From positions 1 through 64,000 of the forward strand of contig CACPJC010000002.1 of assembly GCA_902634185.1 (NCBI GenBank): a stretch of 64,000 nt of DNA, given 5' to 3'. The notes under the pieces were generated by a model. It did no database searches. It saw only the letters and a list, made by a program, of their open reading frames with translations, and was not told the DNA's origin. This DNA is from an uncultured Candidatus Actinomarina sp. Its GTDB lineage: Bacteria; Actinomycetota; Acidimicrobiia; Actinomarinales; Actinomarinaceae. Made by a program: the position numbers and the translations under genes. Of the stretch, positions 3,957 through 53,384 are shown piece after piece. Each line of letters begins with the position of its first letter. The stretch's first letter is position 1.

Positions 3957-6500
3957 CTACCTTAATTTAATAAACTTACTATTTGGGAAATTTTTTTGAT
4001 TGTTTAGTTTAATAGAGTTATAAAAATTCCATGCTAAAACAAGAACATAATCATAACTTTCTTTATCAACCCGATTAATATTTTTAATTTGAATGCCTGT
4101 GCCAGGAATAAATTTTTCCTGCTTAAGTTTATTATCGTCAATTGTAAAATCTAAATAATCAGAATTTATTCCAAAATAATTTAATACAGTTGTTGCTTTT
4201 GCTGGTGCTCCGTATCCAATAATTTTTTTATTATTTAAATTTATTTCCTTAATTTTTTTTAAAGAGCTTAGTTTTATTTTTTCCACATCATTCGCAAACT
4301 TATAATAAGTTTCAATCTTATCCAGTTTATTTTTCTTTTCTAATTCAATATATTCTCTCAAACTTTTGTGAGCTCTTTTATTTTTATTCATTGTTGCATA
4401 AACTCTTAATGATCCACCATGAGTATCAACTTCTTCAACTTTATAAACCTTCATCTCAGAATCTTTGAAAAAATGAAGTATAGATAGTAAACACCAATAG
4501 TTAACATGCTCGTGATAAATATTATCAAATGTTAAGTCTTTAATTGTTCTCAGTAAATATTGTATTTCAAAAATAAATTCTCCATCTTTCTTTAAAAGCT
4601 TTTTTACATTATCTAAAATATCTCTAAGTCCATCACTGTGAGCAAAAACGTTAAAAGCTGTAACAACATCTGCTTTACCGTGCTGTTTTGTTATCTTATT
4701 TACTGTTTTATCACTGAAATATTCTGTAAATGTTTTAAGTCCATTTGAATTTGCAATTTTTGCAACATTTTTTGCTGGCTCTACTCCAACAGATGTTATA
4801 CCAAGTTCTTGAATTGGTTCTAGGAATATTCCATCGTTACTTCCTATATCTACAAGTGTTGAATTTTTATCAAGATTTAAATCTTTCTTTAATTTATGTG
4901 CAAAATCTATGAAGTGACTTCTAAACAATTCGGAAGTAGATGATAAATAAAGATATGTATCAAACATTTTTTCTGGTGGAACTACGACACTTAATTGAGA
5001 ATTAAAACATTGTTTACAAAAGTTTAGATCTAGTGGATACATTTCATCATCTGCTTTTTTCTCATTGTTTAAATTGTTTGCCAAAGGTGAAAGACCTAAT
5101 GATAAATAATGATTTAAACCGCCTCCACATACTCTGCAATCAGTTTTATAGCTTTTAATTAAAAGGTCTCCTAGTTTTGTGTCTACTAATTCATATTTTA
5201 AAGTGTGTGTCATTCCATAGTTTTCATGTTCTCTTTCACCATTGACTAAATTTAAAAAAACTGAATCCTCCAAAAAAACCATTGTATGAGCAACATTGGG
5301 AGGTATTGTTGAAAGATCTCCATCCTTGATTAATCTAGTTTCAACAACAGAACTTGGGTTTAATAAGTCTTTTGTAACACTTATATATTTTCCTTTGATT
5401 AATAAGCATTTCTGAGTTTGTACAGGATGGTAATGGTTGCCTCTTATTGAACCTTTTTTTGACTCTACGTAGCCAATCATATTAATTGAATCATCTACAT
5501 AATAATTTGAAATAATTCCTCTTTCATCTACAAACTCATCAGCGCCGGATTCAATAATTTCATTTGATAATACTTGTGATTGATCGCTCCAAGATTCTAT
5601 CATTTCTCTAAAAGAATCCTCAACATTATATAAGAATTTAAAGCCATTGCTTCTGATTTTTTTGTTAGTTAACGTATATCCTTCGTTTGGGACAGGATCA
5701 TCTGTAATTACCAGGTCAGTCTTCTTATTGATTTTTTTACATAAATCTGCAACATCTTTTACAGATAAATTTTCATTTACACAATTAAATATCTCTTTGT
5801 TAATTTTTTTATTTTCACCAACAAACTCCATACATCGCACAACATCATTTATAGAAACTAAACTTTTAAGCTGTTTTCCACCAGAATATAATGTAATCTT
5901 TCCATTAAATGATGAGATTTTTGCAAATAAATTTGGCATTATATTTAAACGAGTAGAATCAAAAGATTTACCATATAAAGACCCAAGTCTAAGAATTACA
6001 AAATTTTTATTTGATTTGATTAAATCGTTTTCTGATTCAAGTTTGCCTTTTGCATAGTCTAAAACAGGGCTTGGTTCATGTGTTTCATCGATATTATATT
6101 TAACTTTTTTAAGACCTTCAAATATTACATGAGTTGATGGAAAAACTATTTTCGCACTTTCTGACGATAAATTAATTATGTTTCTTGTTCCTTCAACTCC
6201 TACTCCAAAAACTAACTTTTCATGATTAATATTTATATCTTCTTTGACAGTCGCAACGTCTGATATACCTGCAAGATGATAAATGATATCAGCATCACTG
6301 ATCTCCTTATTAAGATTATTTGAATCAAGAATGTCAATTTGTCTATACTTAATACCCCATCTCTTTAATTGTTCAACTCTTGATGAGTGAAATTTATTAT
6401 CAATTACTGTTATATTTTTTGTTCTTGACTGGCCAGAATAAATTTTACATAGCTCCATGCCAATATATCCAAGACCCCCTGTGATAACAATTTTTTTCAT
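3957..6500 (-). CDS. Three-domain fusion: NDP-sugar epimerase/dehydratase + cupin + NDP-hexose C-methyltransferase
   Basis: GGLGYIG and YAKGK (SDR); FVDERG/RGNHYH/AHTM (cupin); CRVCG...CKQC, DIGSNDG, IYHEH, YGAPAK, VLAWNF (C-methyltransferase). Confidence 0.85.
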   Translation of the reverse strand: MKKIVITGGLGYIGMELCKIYSGQSRTKNITVIDNKFHSSRVEQLKRWGIKYRQIDILDSNNLNKEISDADIIYHLAGISDVATVKEDININHEKLVFGVGVEGTRNIINLSSESAKIVFPSTHVIFEGLKKVKYNIDETHEPSPVLDYAKGKLESENDLIKSNKNFVILRLGSLYGKSFDSTRLNIMPNLFAKISSFNGKITLYSGGKQLKSLVSINDVVRCMEFVGENKKINKEIFNCVNENLSVKDVADLCKKINKKTDLVITDDPVPNEGYTLTNKKIRSNGFKFLYNVEDSFREMIESWSDQSQVLSNEIIESGADEFVDERGIISNYYVDDSINMIGYVESKKGSIRGNHYHPVQTQKCLLIKGKYISVTKDLLNPSSVVETRLIKDGDLSTIPPNVAHTMVFLEDSVFLNLVNGEREHENYGMTHTLKYELVDTKLGDLLIKSYKTDCRVCGGGLNHYLSLGLSPLANNLNNEKKADDEMYPLDLNFCKQCFNSQLSVVVPPEKMFDTYLYLSSTSELFRSHFIDFAHKLKKDLNLDKNSTLVDIGSNDGIFLEPIQELGITSVGVEPAKNVAKIANSNGLKTFTEYFSDKTVNKITKQHGKADVVTAFNVFAHSDGLRDILDNVKKLLKKDGEFIFEIQYLLRTIKDLTFDNIYHEHVNYWCLLSILHFFKDSEMKVYKVEEVDTHGGSLRVYATMNKNKRAHKSLREYIELEKKNKLDKIETYYKFANDVEKIKLSSLKKIKEINLNNKKIIGYGAPAKATTVLNYFGINSDYLDFTIDDNKLKQEKFIPGTGIQIKNINRVDKESYDYVLVLAWNFYNSIKLNNQKNFPNSKFIKLR

Positions 6501-6621: not shown

Positions 6622-6695
6622 GGGCGCTTAGCTCAGTCCGGCAGAGCGCTTCCCTTACAAGGAAGAAGTCACAGGTTCAAATCCTGTAGCGCCCA
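6622..6695 (+). tRNA. tRNA-Val(TAC)
   Basis: Acceptor GGGCGCT/AGCGCCC, anticodon arm CTTCC-CTTACAA-GGAAG, T-loop GGTTCAAATCC; CCA not encoded. Confidence 0.95.
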
Positions 6696-6731
6696 CAAAG
6701 GTTTTTCAGAAATCTACCCTACGAAAATACA

Positions 6732-6753
6732 AAAAACCGCACAAAAACCGCAC
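6732..6753 (+). repeat. Tandem 11-bp doublet AAAAACCGCAC x2 (putative integrase arm-type sites)
   Basis: Read directly; begins 37 bp after the tRNA discriminator base. Confidence 0.8.
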
Positions 6754-6768
6754 ATTTATAGATAGCGC

Positions 6769-7425
6769 TTAAGCTTTTTTAGCTAACTCTCTTCTTGAGA
6801 AATAAATAATAATAGGGGTTCCAACAATAGTTGGGGCAACCCAGTTCAACCAAAGTGTAGCAAACGGATCTAAAGTCACAATAAACGCGGTTGTGGTTGC
6901 AATAGTTCCAGCAAGCATAAGATTTAGATGAAGATTAGTTCTGTCATAGAAATTTGGTCGCTCGACTATCTTCATACGACGAAAATCATTAAAACCTAAA
7001 GCTAGAGCTATAGACCCAAAAAGTATAGAGGTAATCCACATAGAATCTTTGATTAAAAATAAACTTATAGCCATAGAATAAAAAAGAATGCCAGTAGTGG
7101 TAATGAATACACCTAGCACTTTATCTATTTTCTCTCGTGCTCCATTTCTATCTCTTCCCTGACGATATCCCGAAAATGCTAAGTAAAAAGAAAAGATAGC
7201 AATAACAAACAGGAATGGGTTAAACTCACCTAACAAACTTAGTGGAATTGCTGTCACAAAAATAGTTGACATCCCATATACATAAATCATCCCTAATTTT
7301 TTATGTCTTTTATTGCCTTTTTTAATAAACAAAAGAAAATATGCAATACCTAAAGAAATAAACCCTGCAAGGATATGAATATAAAGAAGTGGTAGTTCAA
7401 TGTCTAAATAATCATTATTGACCAT
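6769..7425 (-). CDS. DUF2306-like membrane protein (cassette cargo)
   Basis: About 6 TM helices; HILAG...HKKLGMIYV...HLNLMLAG pattern. Confidence 0.7.
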   Translation of the reverse strand: MVNNDYLDIELPLLYIHILAGFISLGIAYFLLFIKKGNKRHKKLGMIYVYGMSTIFVTAIPLSLLGEFNPFLFVIAIFSFYLAFSGYRQGRDRNGAREKIDKVLGVFITTTGILFYSMAISLFLIKDSMWITSILFGSIALALGFNDFRRMKIVERPNFYDRTNLHLNLMLAGTIATTTAFIVTLDPFATLWLNWVAPTIVGTPIIIYFSRRELAKKA

Positions 7426-7445
7426 AAAGAAAATTCTAGTTATTT

Positions 7446-7467
7446 AACCGCACAAAAACCCCACAAA
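7446..7467 (+). repeat. Internal doublet AACCGCACAAA-AACCCCACAAA
   Basis: Read directly; hybrid of the 6732 and 8487 doublets, followed by TTTTCTAA as at 9297-9304. Confidence 0.8.
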
Positions 7468-7509
7468 TTTTCTAAGATAAATTTATAAATATAAAAATTA
7501 TTATTTGAT

Positions 7510-8031
7510 ATGAAAAAAAATTATTTTCAATACATATTAATTATTCAATTCATATTGATATTTATATGTATTTTTTTTATTTATCAAAATAATTTAAAGA
7601 TTTCATCTCAAAATATAGAAATTAAAAATTTAGAAGAATCAAATAAAAATTTGAACATTTCTCTTGAAGCATATATCACATCTCTTGAAGCAAATATCAC
7701 TTCTCTTGAAAATAATATAGATAATATTCCTTCAGGACCAAGAGGTCCAAAAGGAGATACAGGTCCTACTGGTCCACAAGGTGAACCAGGAAAAGATTCT
7801 GGCTTAAGTTCCAAACAGATACAGGACATAAGTAAAATAAAAACACTTGAATTGCGGGTAGACTCACTTTGGGACAGAATCCACAAGGTAGGATCAATTA
7901 ACTATACTTGGTATCAATATAAAAGTCTTATTCAGTTAAATAAATGTGTTGATATTTTAACTGACTATGTACTTTATCCAAATCTTTTTGGTGGAATCAC
8001 TGGTTTTGTAGAGATGGAATGTAAAGATTAG
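7510..8031 (+). CDS. Membrane-anchored coiled-coil/collagen-like protein (cassette cargo)
   Basis: N-terminal TM, heptad repeat ISLEAY-ITSLEAN-ITSLENN, seven G-X-Y triplets GPRGPKGDTGPTGPQGEPGKD. Confidence 0.75.
   Translation: MKKNYFQYILIIQFILIFICIFFIYQNNLKISSQNIEIKNLEESNKNLNISLEAYITSLEANITSLENNIDNIPSGPRGPKGDTGPTGPQGEPGKDSGLSSKQIQDISKIKTLELRVDSLWDRIHKVGSINYTWYQYKSLIQLNKCVDILTDYVLYPNLFGGITGFVEMECKD
7660..7710 (+). repeat. 21-bp period coding repeat (TCTCTTGAA at 7660, 7681, 7702)
   Basis: Read directly; encodes the heptad repeat. Confidence 0.8.
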
Positions 8032-8087
8032 TAAATATTTAATTGCATATAAGCTTTGTAAAATTGATTAATATTAATTAAGAATTA

Positions 8088-8480
8088 ATGAAAAAAACCT
8101 TAAAGTATTTACTTTTTTTACTGCTAATCGTATCGTGTACAAATTATCAAACTGAGTATAAAGATGATGCAATTAGAGAGCATAAAATTCTTTACGAATT
8201 AGAAAATATAGATTTTGATGAAGAAAAAATAATTGAATATATAAATCTTGAGTGTGAGTTTATTGAAGAAGGTATAGATGACCATATTGCTGATGATTTA
8301 CCAATTTATTACTTTATAGATTTTTATTACATTATTAAAAGAAATACAGTAGCAGATGCTCAAGCGGTTGAAAATTATATGGAAGCGATATTTAATTATT
8401 GTAATTTTTCTAGTGAGTTGGAAGACAATTGGGAGTCCTTAGAAGCTAGAGAAGAATCCTACAAAAAATTTAATTCTTAA
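8088..8480 (+). CDS. Acidic putative lipoprotein (cassette cargo)
   Basis: Signal peptide MKKTLKYLLFLLLIVSC with lipobox Cys. Confidence 0.65.
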   Translation: MKKTLKYLLFLLLIVSCTNYQTEYKDDAIREHKILYELENIDFDEEKIIEYINLECEFIEEGIDDHIADDLPIYYFIDFYYIIKRNTVADAQAVENYMEAIFNYCNFSSELEDNWESLEAREESYKKFNS

Positions 8481-8486
8481 CTACTT

Positions 8487-8508
8487 AACCCCACAAAAAC
8501 CCCACAAA
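8487..8508 (+). repeat. Doublet AACCCCACAAA x2
   Basis: Read directly; starts 7 bp after the cargo stop and ends about 120 bp before the tRNA core. Confidence 0.8.
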
Positions 8509-8514
8509 TTATTC

Positions 8515-8687
8515 AAAACTGTAGATACTCTTTGATAACCTCTGATATCTTTTTGATAGGGCTTAATTTCATTGACTCTATAAATTGATACTCTGTGATA
8601 CAACCTAGTATTTAATGGTTCTTTCCTTACAAGGAAGAAGTCACAGGTTCAAATCCTGTAGCGCCCACAAGGGTTTTTCAGAAATCT
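8515..8687 (+). repeat. att-like repeat copy 1: 110-bp spacer + tRNA-Val 3' half + 20-bp tail
   Basis: Ungapped match to 9303-9475 (11 mismatches in the 110-bp spacer by manual alignment); 8625-8667 is identical to tRNA 6653-6695. Confidence 0.9.
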
Positions 8688-8703
8688 TTACATATATATA
8701 CTC

Positions 8704-8724
8704 AAAAGACACCTAAAAGACACC
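8704..8724 (+). repeat. Doublet AAAAGACACC-T-AAAAGACACC
   Basis: Read directly; begins 37 bp after the tRNA-fragment discriminator (8667). Confidence 0.85.
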
Positions 8725-8762
8725 GCTTCTGTAGAGTTTCATTTGGTAATATACATTTAGTT

Positions 8763-9284
8763 ATGGAATTAGATTTTGAATTTGAGTTAAGCAAAGGAAA
8801 ACAAAACTCACTTGGAGAGACGTTAAAAGTAGTAGAACATATTCAAAACAATATAAAAGAAATTGATAAATTATTCTTATGTTTTTTTTCTAACAATTCT
8901 TTAGTTGCAATGAGAGCTATGAATGCAACAAAAAGAATAATAAAAGGTGATAATCATATTTTTGTTGAAAATAAAAAAAGATTCATAGATGAGTTTTCAG
9001 AGTCTGAACATAATGTAGTCAAACTTGGGCTTATTACAATTTATTATGATTTCATTTCATATTTTGACGATAAAGAATACAAAGTTATTAGTAAAAATGC
9101 AATGAGTTGGGTGGAAAATAGTAAAGACTGGATGATACTTGCTCAAGGTTTAAAACTTCTAGAAAAATTATCCAATTCAGACGAAATATTGAAGTCAAAT
9201 GTTATAAGTATCGCAAGACAGTTAAAGAATGATGAAAGAAAAGCTGTTAGATCTCAGGCACAAAAAATTTTAAAAGACACCTAA
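8763..9284 (+). CDS. HEAT/ARM-repeat-like helical protein (cassette cargo)
   Basis: Predicted all-helical; HEAT-like ends such as NNSLVAMRAMNA and DERKAVRSQAQKIL; stop codon lies inside the right doublet. Confidence 0.55.
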   Translation: MELDFEFELSKGKQNSLGETLKVVEHIQNNIKEIDKLFLCFFSNNSLVAMRAMNATKRIIKGDNHIFVENKKRFIDEFSESEHNVVKLGLITIYYDFISYFDDKEYKVISKNAMSWVENSKDWMILAQGLKLLEKLSNSDEILKSNVISIARQLKNDERKAVRSQAQKILKDT

Positions 9285-9292
9285 AAGACACC
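9272..9292 (+). repeat. Doublet AAAAGACACC-T-AAAAGACACC
   Basis: Identical to 8704-8724. Confidence 0.85.
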
Positions 9293-9302
9293 AAAATTTT
9301 CT

Positions 9303-9475
9303 AAAACTGTAGATACTCTCTGATAGCCTCTGATATCTTTTTAAAAGAGCTTGAGTTCATTGACTCTATGAATTGATACTCTCTGATACTACCTAGTATT
9401 TAGTGGTTCTTTCCTTACAAGGAAGAAGTCACAGGTTCAAATCCTGCAGCGCCCACAAAGGTTTTTCAGAAATCT
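9303..9475 (+). repeat. att-like repeat copy 2: spacer + tRNA-Val 3' half (one T>C change) + tail
   Basis: Matches 8515-8687 at a constant offset of 788 bp. Confidence 0.9.
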
Positions 9476-9507
9476 TTACATATTGACTAATCAATTATTA
9501 TGAAATT

Positions 9508-9675
9508 ATGAAATATAAAAAAGAGTTAAGTGTTTTACTTATTTTTGTAACTTTTGCTTGGCCAGTATTTGACATTCTTGACTCTAGTTACACTCCAACT
9601 CAAGTAATTTTAACTGTTATATTTGCTTATCTTGGAATACGTTTTACTTACTTCGTTTATTTTAAAAATAACTAA
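9508..9675 (+). CDS. Small 55-aa two-TM membrane protein (absent from the ORF track)
   Basis: Manual translation MKYKKELSVLLIFVTFAWPVFDILDSSYTPTQVILTVIFAYLGIRFTYFVYFKNN*; TATTAT-N6-ATG; fills the gap before the convergent gene. Confidence 0.65.
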   Translation: MKYKKELSVLLIFVTFAWPVFDILDSSYTPTQVILTVIFAYLGIRFTYFVYFKNN

Positions 9676-52655: not shown

Positions 52656-52701
52656 TGGTGGCCAGAGGCAGAATCGAACTGCCGACCCCTTGTTTTTCAG
52701 A
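52656..52701 (-). repeat. tRNA-Phe 3' half duplicate with encoded CCA (attR-like)
   Basis: 52658-52701 is identical to 53311-53354 (44 bp). Confidence 0.9.
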
Positions 52702-52819
52702 TAAAGGCAGACCACTTGACCTTATCTTATTGTAACTTATTCGTTGTTAGTTTTCGCTCATTACCTAGAGCTTGTATCAAGTAACGAGCAGTAAATAAAT
52801 CACAATAAAGAAACCTAAG

Positions 52820-52841
52820 TGGCACAGTTTTGGCACAGTTT
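52820..52841 (-). repeat. Doublet TGGCACAGTTT x2 (AAACTGTGCCA x2 on the minus strand)
   Basis: Read directly; abuts the cargo stop codon and lies 119 bp from the core. Confidence 0.85.
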
Positions 52842-53225
52842 TTATTCTTTTTCAACTAACTTGTTAACCAGAATAAACAATGATCCACCTATAAGAGTCC
52901 ATAGTATATCATTCCAATCAAAAACACCTCTTCCAGGTGTGTATTTTGCAATGAATTCGTTACCTATTAGGCCAACCATAGAAATCACTACTGACCACTT
53001 CAATCTATTTTTGTAAACTGATGAATTAGATTTAAATACCTCTGGAATGCTTACATAAAAAAAACTTGGTATGCCGATGCCTGGAAAGAAGTTAGGAGCT
53101 ACTCCAAGAAAATAAATTACAAGATCGTTTCCACCAACATAACTGGGTCTAATGTAGCTTTGAACCAAGCCAAATAAAAAAAATGAGATTCCAAATATTG
53201 TGTAGTACAGAAAGTGTTTCTTCAT
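52842..53225 (-). CDS. Small membrane protein, VanZ-like C-terminus (cassette cargo)
   Basis: About 4 TM; APNF, GNEF, GVFDWNDILWTLIG. Confidence 0.6.
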   Translation of the reverse strand: MKKHFLYYTIFGISFFLFGLVQSYIRPSYVGGNDLVIYFLGVAPNFFPGIGIPSFFYVSIPEVFKSNSSVYKNRLKWSVVISMVGLIGNEFIAKYTPGRGVFDWNDILWTLIGGSLFILVNKLVEKE

Positions 53226-53311
53226 ATATTGAATATATTACTTTATTGGCTATTACAAGTGTCTGTCGAGAAGTTTTGTGACAAAAGTCTTTAATTTGTT
53301 TAAAAACCTTG

Positions 53312-53384
53312 TGGCCAGAGGCAGAATCGAACTGCCGACCCCTTGTTTTTCAGACAAGTGCTCTACCGACTGAGCTATCTGGCC
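53312..53384 (-). tRNA. tRNA-Phe(GAA)
   Basis: Acceptor GGCCAGA/TCTGGCC, anticodon arm CTTGT-CTGAAAA-ACAAG, GTTCGATTC. Confidence 0.95.

Follow-up and report, generated by a model that had tools for sequence, protein, structure and literature searches.

Matched pairs of 11-bp repeats in the tRNA-Val cassettes of Candidatus Actinomarina as probable arm-type sites of a tyrosine integrase family

Introduction

Mycobacteriophages have phage attachment sites (attP) in which (i) the core corresponds to the 3' portion of a gene for a tRNA or tmRNA, (ii) the core is flanked by pairs of 11-bp repeats that form putative arm-type sites and are direct repeats in L5 and Giles, (iii) phages with the same core can differ in arm sequence, and (iv) the arm consensus co-varies with N-terminal residues of the integrase (available part of PMC3203893). 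Here, we describe a comparable arrangement in a 64,000-nucleotide (nt) stretch of DNA (the window) from an uncultured Candidatus (Ca.) Actinomarina sp. (GenBank assembly GCA_902634185.1, contig CACPJC010000002.1, positions 1 to 64,000), in which an intact tRNA-Val gene is followed by small cassettes that end in fragments of this tRNA and carry tandem 11-bp repeats (doublets) at fixed distances from the fragments.

Tycheposons, phage-inducible chromosomal island (PICI)-like satellites and virion-encapsidated integrative mobile elements (VEIMEs) of marine bacteria integrate at tRNA genes and form tandem elements split by partial tRNAs, with islands that grow from the tRNA end; the PICI-like gene sets comprise an integrase, a primase and a small terminase (10.1101/2020.12.28.424599 and PMC9618062, in the parts available). 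The available parts of this preprint and of Eppley et al. (PMC9618062) make no mention of Actinomarina, and tRNA is also unmentioned in the available main text of the latter. The flexible genomic island of Ca. Actinomarinales to which the window locus belongs (fGI1) is described by Lopez-Perez et al. 2020 (PMC7771536), and a 2026 preprint with 84 complete genomes confirms a tRNA-bounded hypervariable region, the integration mechanism of which is said to remain to be identified (10.64898/2026.04.03.716425; available parts of both). Both papers report island cassettes that end in tRNA fragments and, in the available text, name no mechanism; the words integrase, attP and recombinase are absent from these texts, while supplements (e.g., Fig. 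S4) could bear on the matter. Literature on Actinomarina with integrase or phage satellite, supplements aside, yields no account of the sites described below.

The doublets are probably pairs of arm-type sites that a heterobivalent tyrosine integrase would bind through its N-terminal domain, and the window units integrase-less miniatures of elements of that family, as judged from comparative sequence data. This reading suggests how the variable island of the tiny Actinomarina genome is built.

Doublets of the Ca. Actinomarina elements

The initial annotation of the window noted one type of doublet at both ends of a first unit and another type at both ends of a second, in an identical register, and direct reading and a repeat search confirm the doublets at these places. 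The left doublet starts exactly 37 nt past the tRNA discriminator in both units (6695 to 6732 and 8667 to 8704), and the second copy of the right doublet starts exactly 20 nt before the spacer (8495 to 8515 and 9283 to 9303). The type-2 doublets at 8704-8725 and 9272-9293 are 100% identical over their 21-nt cores. Pattern searches of the 64 kb return three type-1 and two type-2 matches (expected 0.00 from 100 shuffles), and the tandem doublet form has no further copy in the whole 974,068-base genome. Chance or low complexity as the origin of the doublets is ruled out by the shuffles, the whole-genome search and the permutations given below.

The doublets were compared across 35 distinct elements from related genomes and marine metagenome contigs, bounded by tRNA-Val or tRNA-Ile fragments; an element was required to have two tRNA cores or to lie on a contig with a terminal overlap, as in a circle or concatemer. 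Thirty of the 35 exceed the doublet-score cut-off at both ends, and the period is 11 in all 30. The left doublet lies 34-39 nt past the tRNA end in one arm family and 56-57 nt in the other, and the right doublet lies 133-142 nt ahead of the tRNA fragment. Elements of 0.4-12 kb thus carry, on both arms and at fixed distances from the core, repeated arm-type sites that are unlike the core sequence. In this respect, the proposal that the doublets act as arm-type integrase sites flanking a constant core is supported.

The proposal that left and right doublets co-vary within an element is strongly borne out. With a conservative grouping of the elements into 22 doublet types, the left doublet is matched best, and uniquely so, by its own right arm in 17 types, with one further tie; the mean match is 17.0 of 20 positions for self and 11.3 (standard deviation 2.1) for non-self comparisons, and none of 100,000 permutations is as high. 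Each element has a 7- or 8-mer of its own that is almost confined to the arms, with two copies on the left and two on the right. A fifth copy of this arm word occurs at -249 to -255 from the right end in eight larger elements (L044, L138, L140, L151, L160, L164, L165 and L174), and the word is otherwise absent from either strand of the 4-12 kb, apart from one stray each in L143, L145 and L160. The fifth copy is single and stands ~115 nt upstream of the right doublet, with a conserved G+C-rich module between the two.

Cassettes of the same doublet type with unrelated cargo are alike from the doublets outward only; the conserved ends are therefore bounded on the inside by the doublets. Arm type and core type (tRNA-Val vs. 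tRNA-Ile) assort separately. The spacer between right doublet and core, like the core itself, had been taken as constant; the constancy of the core stands, while the spacer is constant within a family only and at least six families are found. Two composite units have an internal doublet (window 7443-7464 and L051), and an empty chassis (core, one doublet and spacer) is absent among 46 cassettes.

The tRNA-fragment junction of the window occurs in 31 stretches, 28 of which are filed under Ca. Actinomarina. The exact Actinomarina tRNA-Val fragment junction is also seen in metagenome-assembled genomes labelled Pseudomonadota (L052), Actinomycetota (L057) and Flavobacteriaceae (L077); the Pseudomonadota and Flavobacteriaceae labels likely reflect mis-binned island contigs.

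Integrase-bearing relatives

The integrase family is encoded by 10 of the 35 elements, which span 4-12 kb, and is missing from the other 25 (0.38-4.1 kb), including both window units. The element of one Actinomarinales genome (G080) is 5.9 kb, has matched doublets on both arms and encodes a 366-amino acid (aa) tyrosine integrase directly beside tRNA-Val (PF00589, E 5e-19; phrog_1, E 2e-50; SAM-like domain), together with an Xre-type helix-turn-helix regulator and two proteins that are primase-like (DUF3631) and small-terminase-like, respectively. This element, the one annotated, resembles a phage satellite. XerC/D was considered as the cassette recombinase, given that in the genus nearly all of 61 genomes show no more than one or two tyrosine-recombinase matches (284-329 aa), which are read as the XerC/D pair; it was set aside, since a dedicated integrase is encoded by relatives that share these ends.

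Relatives of the G080 integrase are found in metagenomes (24 proteins, 42-99% identity), where a scan returned 48 loci. Many of these loci present the attP order on one contig, each with its own doublet sequence: right doublet, spacer, core and left doublet, followed by the 3' end of the integrase gene. Terminal overlaps, as in circles or concatemers, are present in contigs L138, L140, L145 and L164; the attP order is seen in L138, L140 and L164, and in L145 on the doubled sequence. Some members of this integrase family use tRNA-Ile(GAT) as target, again in its 3' part and with unchanged doublet geometry (L136, L139, L140, L142, L143, L145, L148, L150 and L151). In the IMG/VR viral collection, the integrase alone gave one distant match, and the core pattern and the integrase alignment gave none, so that this collection offers no virome evidence.

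The N-terminal domain of the integrase and its coupling to the doublets

An AlphaFold model of the integrase (predicted local distance difference test score, pLDDT, 81.5) places a three-strand sheet and a helix (residues 3-52) before the core-binding and catalytic domains. With the full model, Foldseek finds Tn1549 Int as well as full-length lambda Int, the latter over 373 columns at ~16% sequence identity. With the N-terminal domain modelled alone, the arm-binding domains of Tn916 and of the high-pathogenicity island (HPI) appear among the weak Foldseek rows only (E >2), and no Pfam arm-domain match is found in the integrase N-terminus.

Among close relatives, the doublet sequence tracks the N-terminal domain of the integrase and not the rest of the protein. 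In 13 pairs that are less than 25% divergent outside this domain, doublet distance correlates with N-domain distance (rho 0.75) and not with that of the rest (rho 0.01). The pair L160 and L165 is of particular use: across 1.5 kb counted from the core, identity per 60-column block is 87-100% save in two separate islands, namely the left doublet (41/60) and the first ~60 integrase codons (37-46/60). The catalytic part conserved between them lies between the islands, and identity is 100% over the next 180 columns. Outside the N-terminal ~60 residues, the two integrases are 95% identical. As the two replacements are non-adjacent, linkage alone is not a sufficient explanation. The converse combination is provided by L134 (tRNA-Val) and L136 (tRNA-Ile), which have the same N-domain type and doublet type on different cores. 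This co-variation supports an arm-binding role for the N-terminal domain. The initial annotation had proposed to correlate doublet type with the arm-binding domain of linked integrases; such a link is specific in the close pairs and in L160/L165, and over all 22 non-redundant integrases the N-terminal domain is not singled out, as the rest of the protein correlates at least as well (see below).

The N-terminal domain also has two cysteines and one histidine (residues 6, 11 and 32 of P0001) that are invariant in 20-22 integrases. These residues could bind a metal, a feature that, to our knowledge, is not known from the arm-binding domains of lambda or Tn916.

The window cassettes and their cargo

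The features of the locus are listed in Table 1. The first unit, taken as one in the initial annotation, is on comparison with relatives a fusion of two cassettes (1a and 1b): a third type-1 doublet (7443-7464) had been missed, and the two ends of the unit come from different cassettes of similar type. Window positions 6697-7475 are 97.6% identical over 782 nt to a stand-alone cassette (L075) that has its own left and right doublets, the right one followed by the start of a spacer; thus, the middle doublet of the window is the right end of cassette 1a. Between 1a and 1b, the remainder of the 1a spacer is missing along with the tRNA fragment and the 1b left arm, and the doublet at 8484-8505 is by the same comparison that of 1b, the left end of which is lost. 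Doublet-by-doublet recombination was rejected as the source of the fusion, as the 11-nt spacer remnant fits an ordinary deletion better.

The open reading frame (ORF) at 8088-8480 is 91.8% identical in a cassette (L037) with other doublets and another spacer family; thus, cargo and chassis reassort. ORF and family searches of the window units reveal small ORFs only, with no clear families and no integrase, so the addressing of each unit by an integrase variant finds no support there. Hallmark genes of the PICI-like elements and tycheposons are likewise absent from the window units and present in the related G080 element. The units keep both att sites and arms, lack a recombinase of their own and share their arm architecture with autonomous relatives. 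They are most likely miniature, integrase-less derivatives that keep the complete proximal arm-site set, comparable to cis-mobilizable elements (CIMEs).

Another genome (G028) has a copy of unit 2 with 99% identity over 740 nt; the core DNA of G028 is 74% identical to that of the window genome over 3.4 kb and 70% in a second gene. The cargo of unit 2 is 99% identical in G028 and in the close relatives G027 and G081, and 93% identical in two distant genomes. The unique part of the unit is present with 2-4 differences in contigs of all four metagenome runs, from four studies. These identities point to a recent spread of the integrase-less unit 2 across species. More distant relatives of the unit 2 cargo (71-73% DNA identity) occur in nine other genomes (including G009:C5:834739 and G020:C1:364148), lying ~30 kb from tRNA-Val in the two genomes checked; in the window genome, the cargo is seen as the cassette copy only.

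Table 1. Features of the tRNA-Val cassette array in the window
Feature	Position	Strand	Evidence or remark
Intact tRNA-Val(TAC)	6622..6696	+	discriminator 6695; ARAGORN; Rfam tRNA 73.8 bits
tRNA-Val 3' 48 nt (anticodon stem onward); shared recombination core, attL of first cassette	part of 6622..6696	+	repeat family
19-nt block after each of the three tRNA copies; beginning of element-derived P' arm	6697..6715	+	97% repeat
Left (P' arm) doublet, cassette 1a, type 1, two 11-bp units	6732..6753	+	37 nt past discriminator
Cassette 1a cargo ORF, 218 aa, membrane-protein-like	6769..7425	-	ORF list; DUF2306 match weak, under cut-off
Middle doublet, type 1; right (P arm) doublet of cassette 1a	7443..7464	+	repeat and pattern search
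11-nt remnant of the sequence usually 3' of right doublets	7465..7475	+	comparison with right ends of relatives
Cassette 1b cargo region	7510..8480	+	ORF list, family search
Cassette 1b ORF, 173 aa, short collagen-like Gly-X-Y stretch	7510-8031	+	
Cassette 1b ORF, 130 aa	8088-8480	+	
Right (P arm) doublet, cassette 1b, type 1 (C variant)	8484..8505	+	repeat and pattern search
Spacer; core-proximal P arm with short phased internal repeats	8506..8620	+	repeat search; relatives
tRNA-Val 3' fragment (48 nt) and 19-nt block; attR of cassette 1b, attL of unit 2	8621..8687	+	
Left doublet, unit 2, type 2	8704..8725	+	repeat and pattern search
Unit 2 cargo ORF, 173 aa, no family assigned; stop codon within right doublet	8763..9284	+	
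Right doublet, unit 2, type 2	9272..9293	+	repeat and pattern search
Spacer (core-proximal P arm) of unit 2	9294..9408	+	repeat search
Second tRNA-Val 3' fragment and 19-nt block, one T-stem change; attR of unit 2	9409..9475	+	
55-aa ORF, likely remnant of a third, decayed cassette	9508..9675	+	78-82% DNA matches at other loci

The 3' 48 nt of the tRNA are repeated at the end of every unit as the identity block, and integration restores the tRNA. Together with the 19-nt block, they form a 67-nt sequence that is repeated at 8621-8687 and 9409-9475 (97% identity in the repeat search) and lies within a longer, 201-nt repeat (8495-8695 and 9283-9483, 90% identity) that also contains the ~115-nt spacer. 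The 19-nt block is present behind most tRNA fragments in relatives and is replaced by other sequence in the G080-type arm family. The intact tRNA has its own anticodon-stem base and the fragments have the element variant; this would place the crossover at or 3' of the anticodon loop. The unit ends are direct repeats, and the repeat search found no attC-type inverted repeats or hairpins at them.

Copies of the 8506-8620 spacer are 85-93% identical in many genomes. Its 3' end has a weak Rfam score as the D-arm side of a tRNA (8602-8659), and a known RNA inside the spacer was rejected, as Rfam gave tRNA-like matches only. Both spacers (8506-8620 and 9294-9408) include several copies of a short motif spaced ~10-11 nt apart, and akin motifs are also seen in the P arms of elements with an integrase. 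They may be sites for an excisionase, for a bending protein or for other accessory proteins. The 55-aa ORF is found at other loci (L018/L041 and L008) between tRNA-Val cores, with degenerate or diverged doublets on its flanks.

Directly upstream of tRNA-Val (3957-6500, minus strand), the window encodes an 847-aa fusion of an NAD-dependent sugar epimerase/dehydratase to a C-methyltransferase, which fits the envelope-glycosylation island described for Actinomarinales. A second cassette of the same build is present at tRNA-Phe (52656-53384, minus strand), in the order intact tRNA-Phe (53311-53384), one membrane-protein-like ORF, doublet, ~85-nt spacer and 3' tRNA-Phe fragment. The 11-bp tandem doublet of this cassette lies at ~52820-52843, with no matching left doublet evident, and ARAGORN calls the 3' fragment as an 82-nt tRNA-Phe (52656-52737).

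Proposed mechanism

In the mechanism that we propose, elements of ~4-12 kb would integrate into the part of tRNA-Val (or, in relatives, tRNA-Ile) that extends from the anticodon stem to the 3' end, with crossover predicted in the anticodon loop. The circular form would read right doublet, ~115-nt spacer, 48-nt tRNA core and, 37 (or 56) nt on, left doublet, giving an attP of ~240 bp bounded by the doublets. The integrase N-terminal domain is predicted to bind and read both doublets of an element; left and right doublets would be the same since one protein domain reads both, and doublets would differ between cassettes through diversification of the integrase family, with many arm specificities for one shared core. 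The window units appear to keep exactly these ends, with one to three cargo genes between the doublets, and such orphan cassettes may be mobilised in trans by an incoming element with matching arm specificity. The separate addressing of cassettes by integrase variants, as the initial annotation put it, fits the comparative data. Candidate excision or circle joints in four metagenome runs are all short-sided (22-37 nt), and the best reading of them is other cassettes with the core, the spacer or a similar doublet in common; a junction with a long side is absent from these runs, where contigs break at repeats, so that its absence is uninformative either way.

Several observations weigh against this mechanism. 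With respect to the enzyme, the window genome (83% complete) has only two tyrosine-recombinase-family matches, which are read as XerC/D; a dedicated integrase is present in one of 62 genomes of the order, that of G080; and none of the 22 non-redundant integrase-bearing elements combines an integrase with either doublet type of the window, although for another type both a cassette and an integrase-bearing element are found. With respect to the sites, four of the 22 doublet types show no left/right match and are read as decayed units, and small cassettes, including those of the window, are without the distal fifth site and the G+C-rich module, while most integrase-bearing elements keep the site; the small cassettes may thus be defective in one direction of the reaction. 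With respect to the protein domain, the N-terminal domain modelled alone (pLDDT ~80) has no Foldseek match at E <=0.001 (best E >1), and in a VIA wide search its best hit is a PH domain of unrelated fold (Z 5.2), with AP2/GCC-box domains at ~3.7. Over the 22 non-redundant integrases, doublet distance correlates with the N-terminal domain (rho 0.55) and with the rest of the protein (rho 0.64); partial Mantel tests give r 0.14 for the N-domain given the rest (174 of 5000 permutations) and r 0.30 for the rest given the N-domain (0 of 5000). As the rest is favoured at least equally, the deep signal is one of common descent. The close-pair test in turn is based on pairs that are non-independent.

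Alternative explanations

The same scarcity of integrases would be expected if the doublets were ancestral arm sites and the window cassettes inert fossils, stranded after loss of their internal genes including the integrase and no longer addressed by anything, in arrays that grow only by fresh insertions at the tRNA, which displace older elements inward. This account is possible, although we do not hold it to be the probable one. Decay is apparent in the distal array (truncated spacers, a mutated T-stem, the fused unit 1 and the remnant third cassette); the missing fifth site of the small cassettes and the lack of a long-sided excision joint in the four metagenome runs agree with it; and the tycheposon model explains island growth alike (10.1101/2020.12.28.424599, available part). 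Yet most integrase-less units keep both arms intact and matched around unrelated cargo, and copies of unit 2 vary in the A/T linker of the doublet and not in its C-rich core. The 99% identity of unit 2 between genomes of ~74% core identity likewise requires recent transfer, possibly by other means, and homologous cargo is carried on different chassis.

The doublets could instead be bound by another element protein, as iterons of the primase-like protein, a pac site of the small-terminase-like protein or operators of the Xre regulator. The G080 element does encode a DUF3631 primase-like protein, a small-terminase homologue and a helix-turn-helix regulator, iterons and terminase sites could equally consist of direct repeats with an 11-bp period, and doublet type correlates with the whole element lineage. 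This explanation is nevertheless unlikely, given that, in elements of any size (0.4-12 kb) or gene content, the spacing between doublet and recombination core is fixed on either side and that the doublets form the inner limits of the conserved ends. The integrase N-terminal domain is the sole diverged coding stretch in the 1.5 kb compared between L160 and L165, and the 3.9-kb element L165, which may or may not have primase- or terminase-like genes, keeps the sites. A pair per arm with a distal site matches described attP sites, and against iterons in particular, the repeats are placed by the att core rather than by the primase-like gene and persist in 0.4-kb units that have no such gene.

That the doublets are crossover sites of a second, nested recombination, in which left-by-right exchange would excise the cargo alone and swap it between chassis as in integrons, is very unlikely: cargo homology between chassis does end at the doublet (ORF 8088-8480 vs. 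L037) and two composite units have an internal doublet, but the 46 cassettes include no empty chassis, the truncated spacer after the middle doublet of the window points to an ordinary deletion, attC-type inverted repeats or hairpins are absent, and no second recombinase family is known, none having been searched for.

Implications

The observation is real, well explained by known mechanism, and new in its context and scale. Reading the doublets as arm-type sites supplies a candidate mechanism for the island, consisting of an integrase family on small, probably satellite-like elements with a defined attP, and of mini-cassettes that keep its limits. The elements also amount to a natural series in which one or two cores are combined with at least 20 variants of the arm sites, and which includes a pair with only the arm sites and the N-terminal domain exchanged (within the 1.5 kb compared); this series is a data set for how arm-binding domains read DNA and for orthogonal integrase/att pairs.

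A more far-reaching version is speculative and, on balance, doubtful: an address-coded cassette system, in which minimal circles, made up of cargo and a ~240-bp attP with doublets as its limits, would be captured and released at tRNA genes by the transient integrases of satellites, the doublet selecting the integrase variant, and which would probably also operate in other streamlined marine bacteria. If so, dozens of arm specificities would split a shared tRNA site into independently exchangeable slots, forming an integron-like system built from lambda-type parts and explaining the turnover of hypervariable islands in genomes that have no integrase of their own. The "specificity code" of the initial annotation is better regarded as an extension than as a new principle, since arm pairs and same-core arm diversity are already known in mycobacteriophages (available part of PMC3203893). 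With co-variation of arm pair and N-terminal domain known from these phages, the advance is in context and scale, not in kind.

Comparison with known systems

Integron cassettes differ from the cassettes described here in having attC hairpin ends, an IntI-type integrase and an attI platform, as opposed to direct repeats and a tRNA platform; the related Actinomarina integrases are of phage type with an extra N-terminal domain, unlike IntI. Tycheposons, PICI-like satellites and VEIMEs are alike in tRNA integration and tandem arrays, whereas the window units are without any hallmark gene of these elements.

CIMEs have functional att flanks and no recombination genes of their own, occur in tandem with or are derived from autonomous elements that share their site, and are presumably moved by the integrase of a relative. 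Compared to CIMEs and to the accretion arrays formed by ICEs (integrative and conjugative elements) and IMEs (integrative and mobilizable elements), the Actinomarina units are not conjugative and are much smaller, and their parents resemble phage satellites. The diversity of arm sites would, in addition, restrict which integrase can act on a given unit.

The lambda Int/attP system, with a heterobivalent tyrosine integrase and five arm-type sites, is similar in its probable three-domain build of the integrase, an attP of ~240 bp bounded by arm sites and an arm word that is present five times (in the larger elements). Arm and core specificity are separable in both systems; lambda and HK022 have common arm sites and different cores. 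By contrast to lambda, the Actinomarina layout has 1+2 sites on the P arm against 2 on the P' arm, with the core in a tRNA, sequence identity is ~16%, and the N-terminal domain model has no significant match to that of lambda.

The mycobacteriophage attP sites (L5, Giles and Cluster K phages such as CrimD and Pixie) are alike in their actinobacterial hosts, tRNA-type core, 11-bp pairs and the combination of the same core with different arms. The site pairs are reportedly required in L5, a result attributed to Pena et al. in 1997; the Actinomarina sites are predicted from sequence. Unlike those of the phages, the Actinomarina sites are kept by integrase-less cassettes of 0.4-4 kb that are stacked in arrays, the autonomous relatives are elements of 4-12 kb (the annotated one satellite-like) and not phages, and at least 20 arm types are arrayed on one or two cores.

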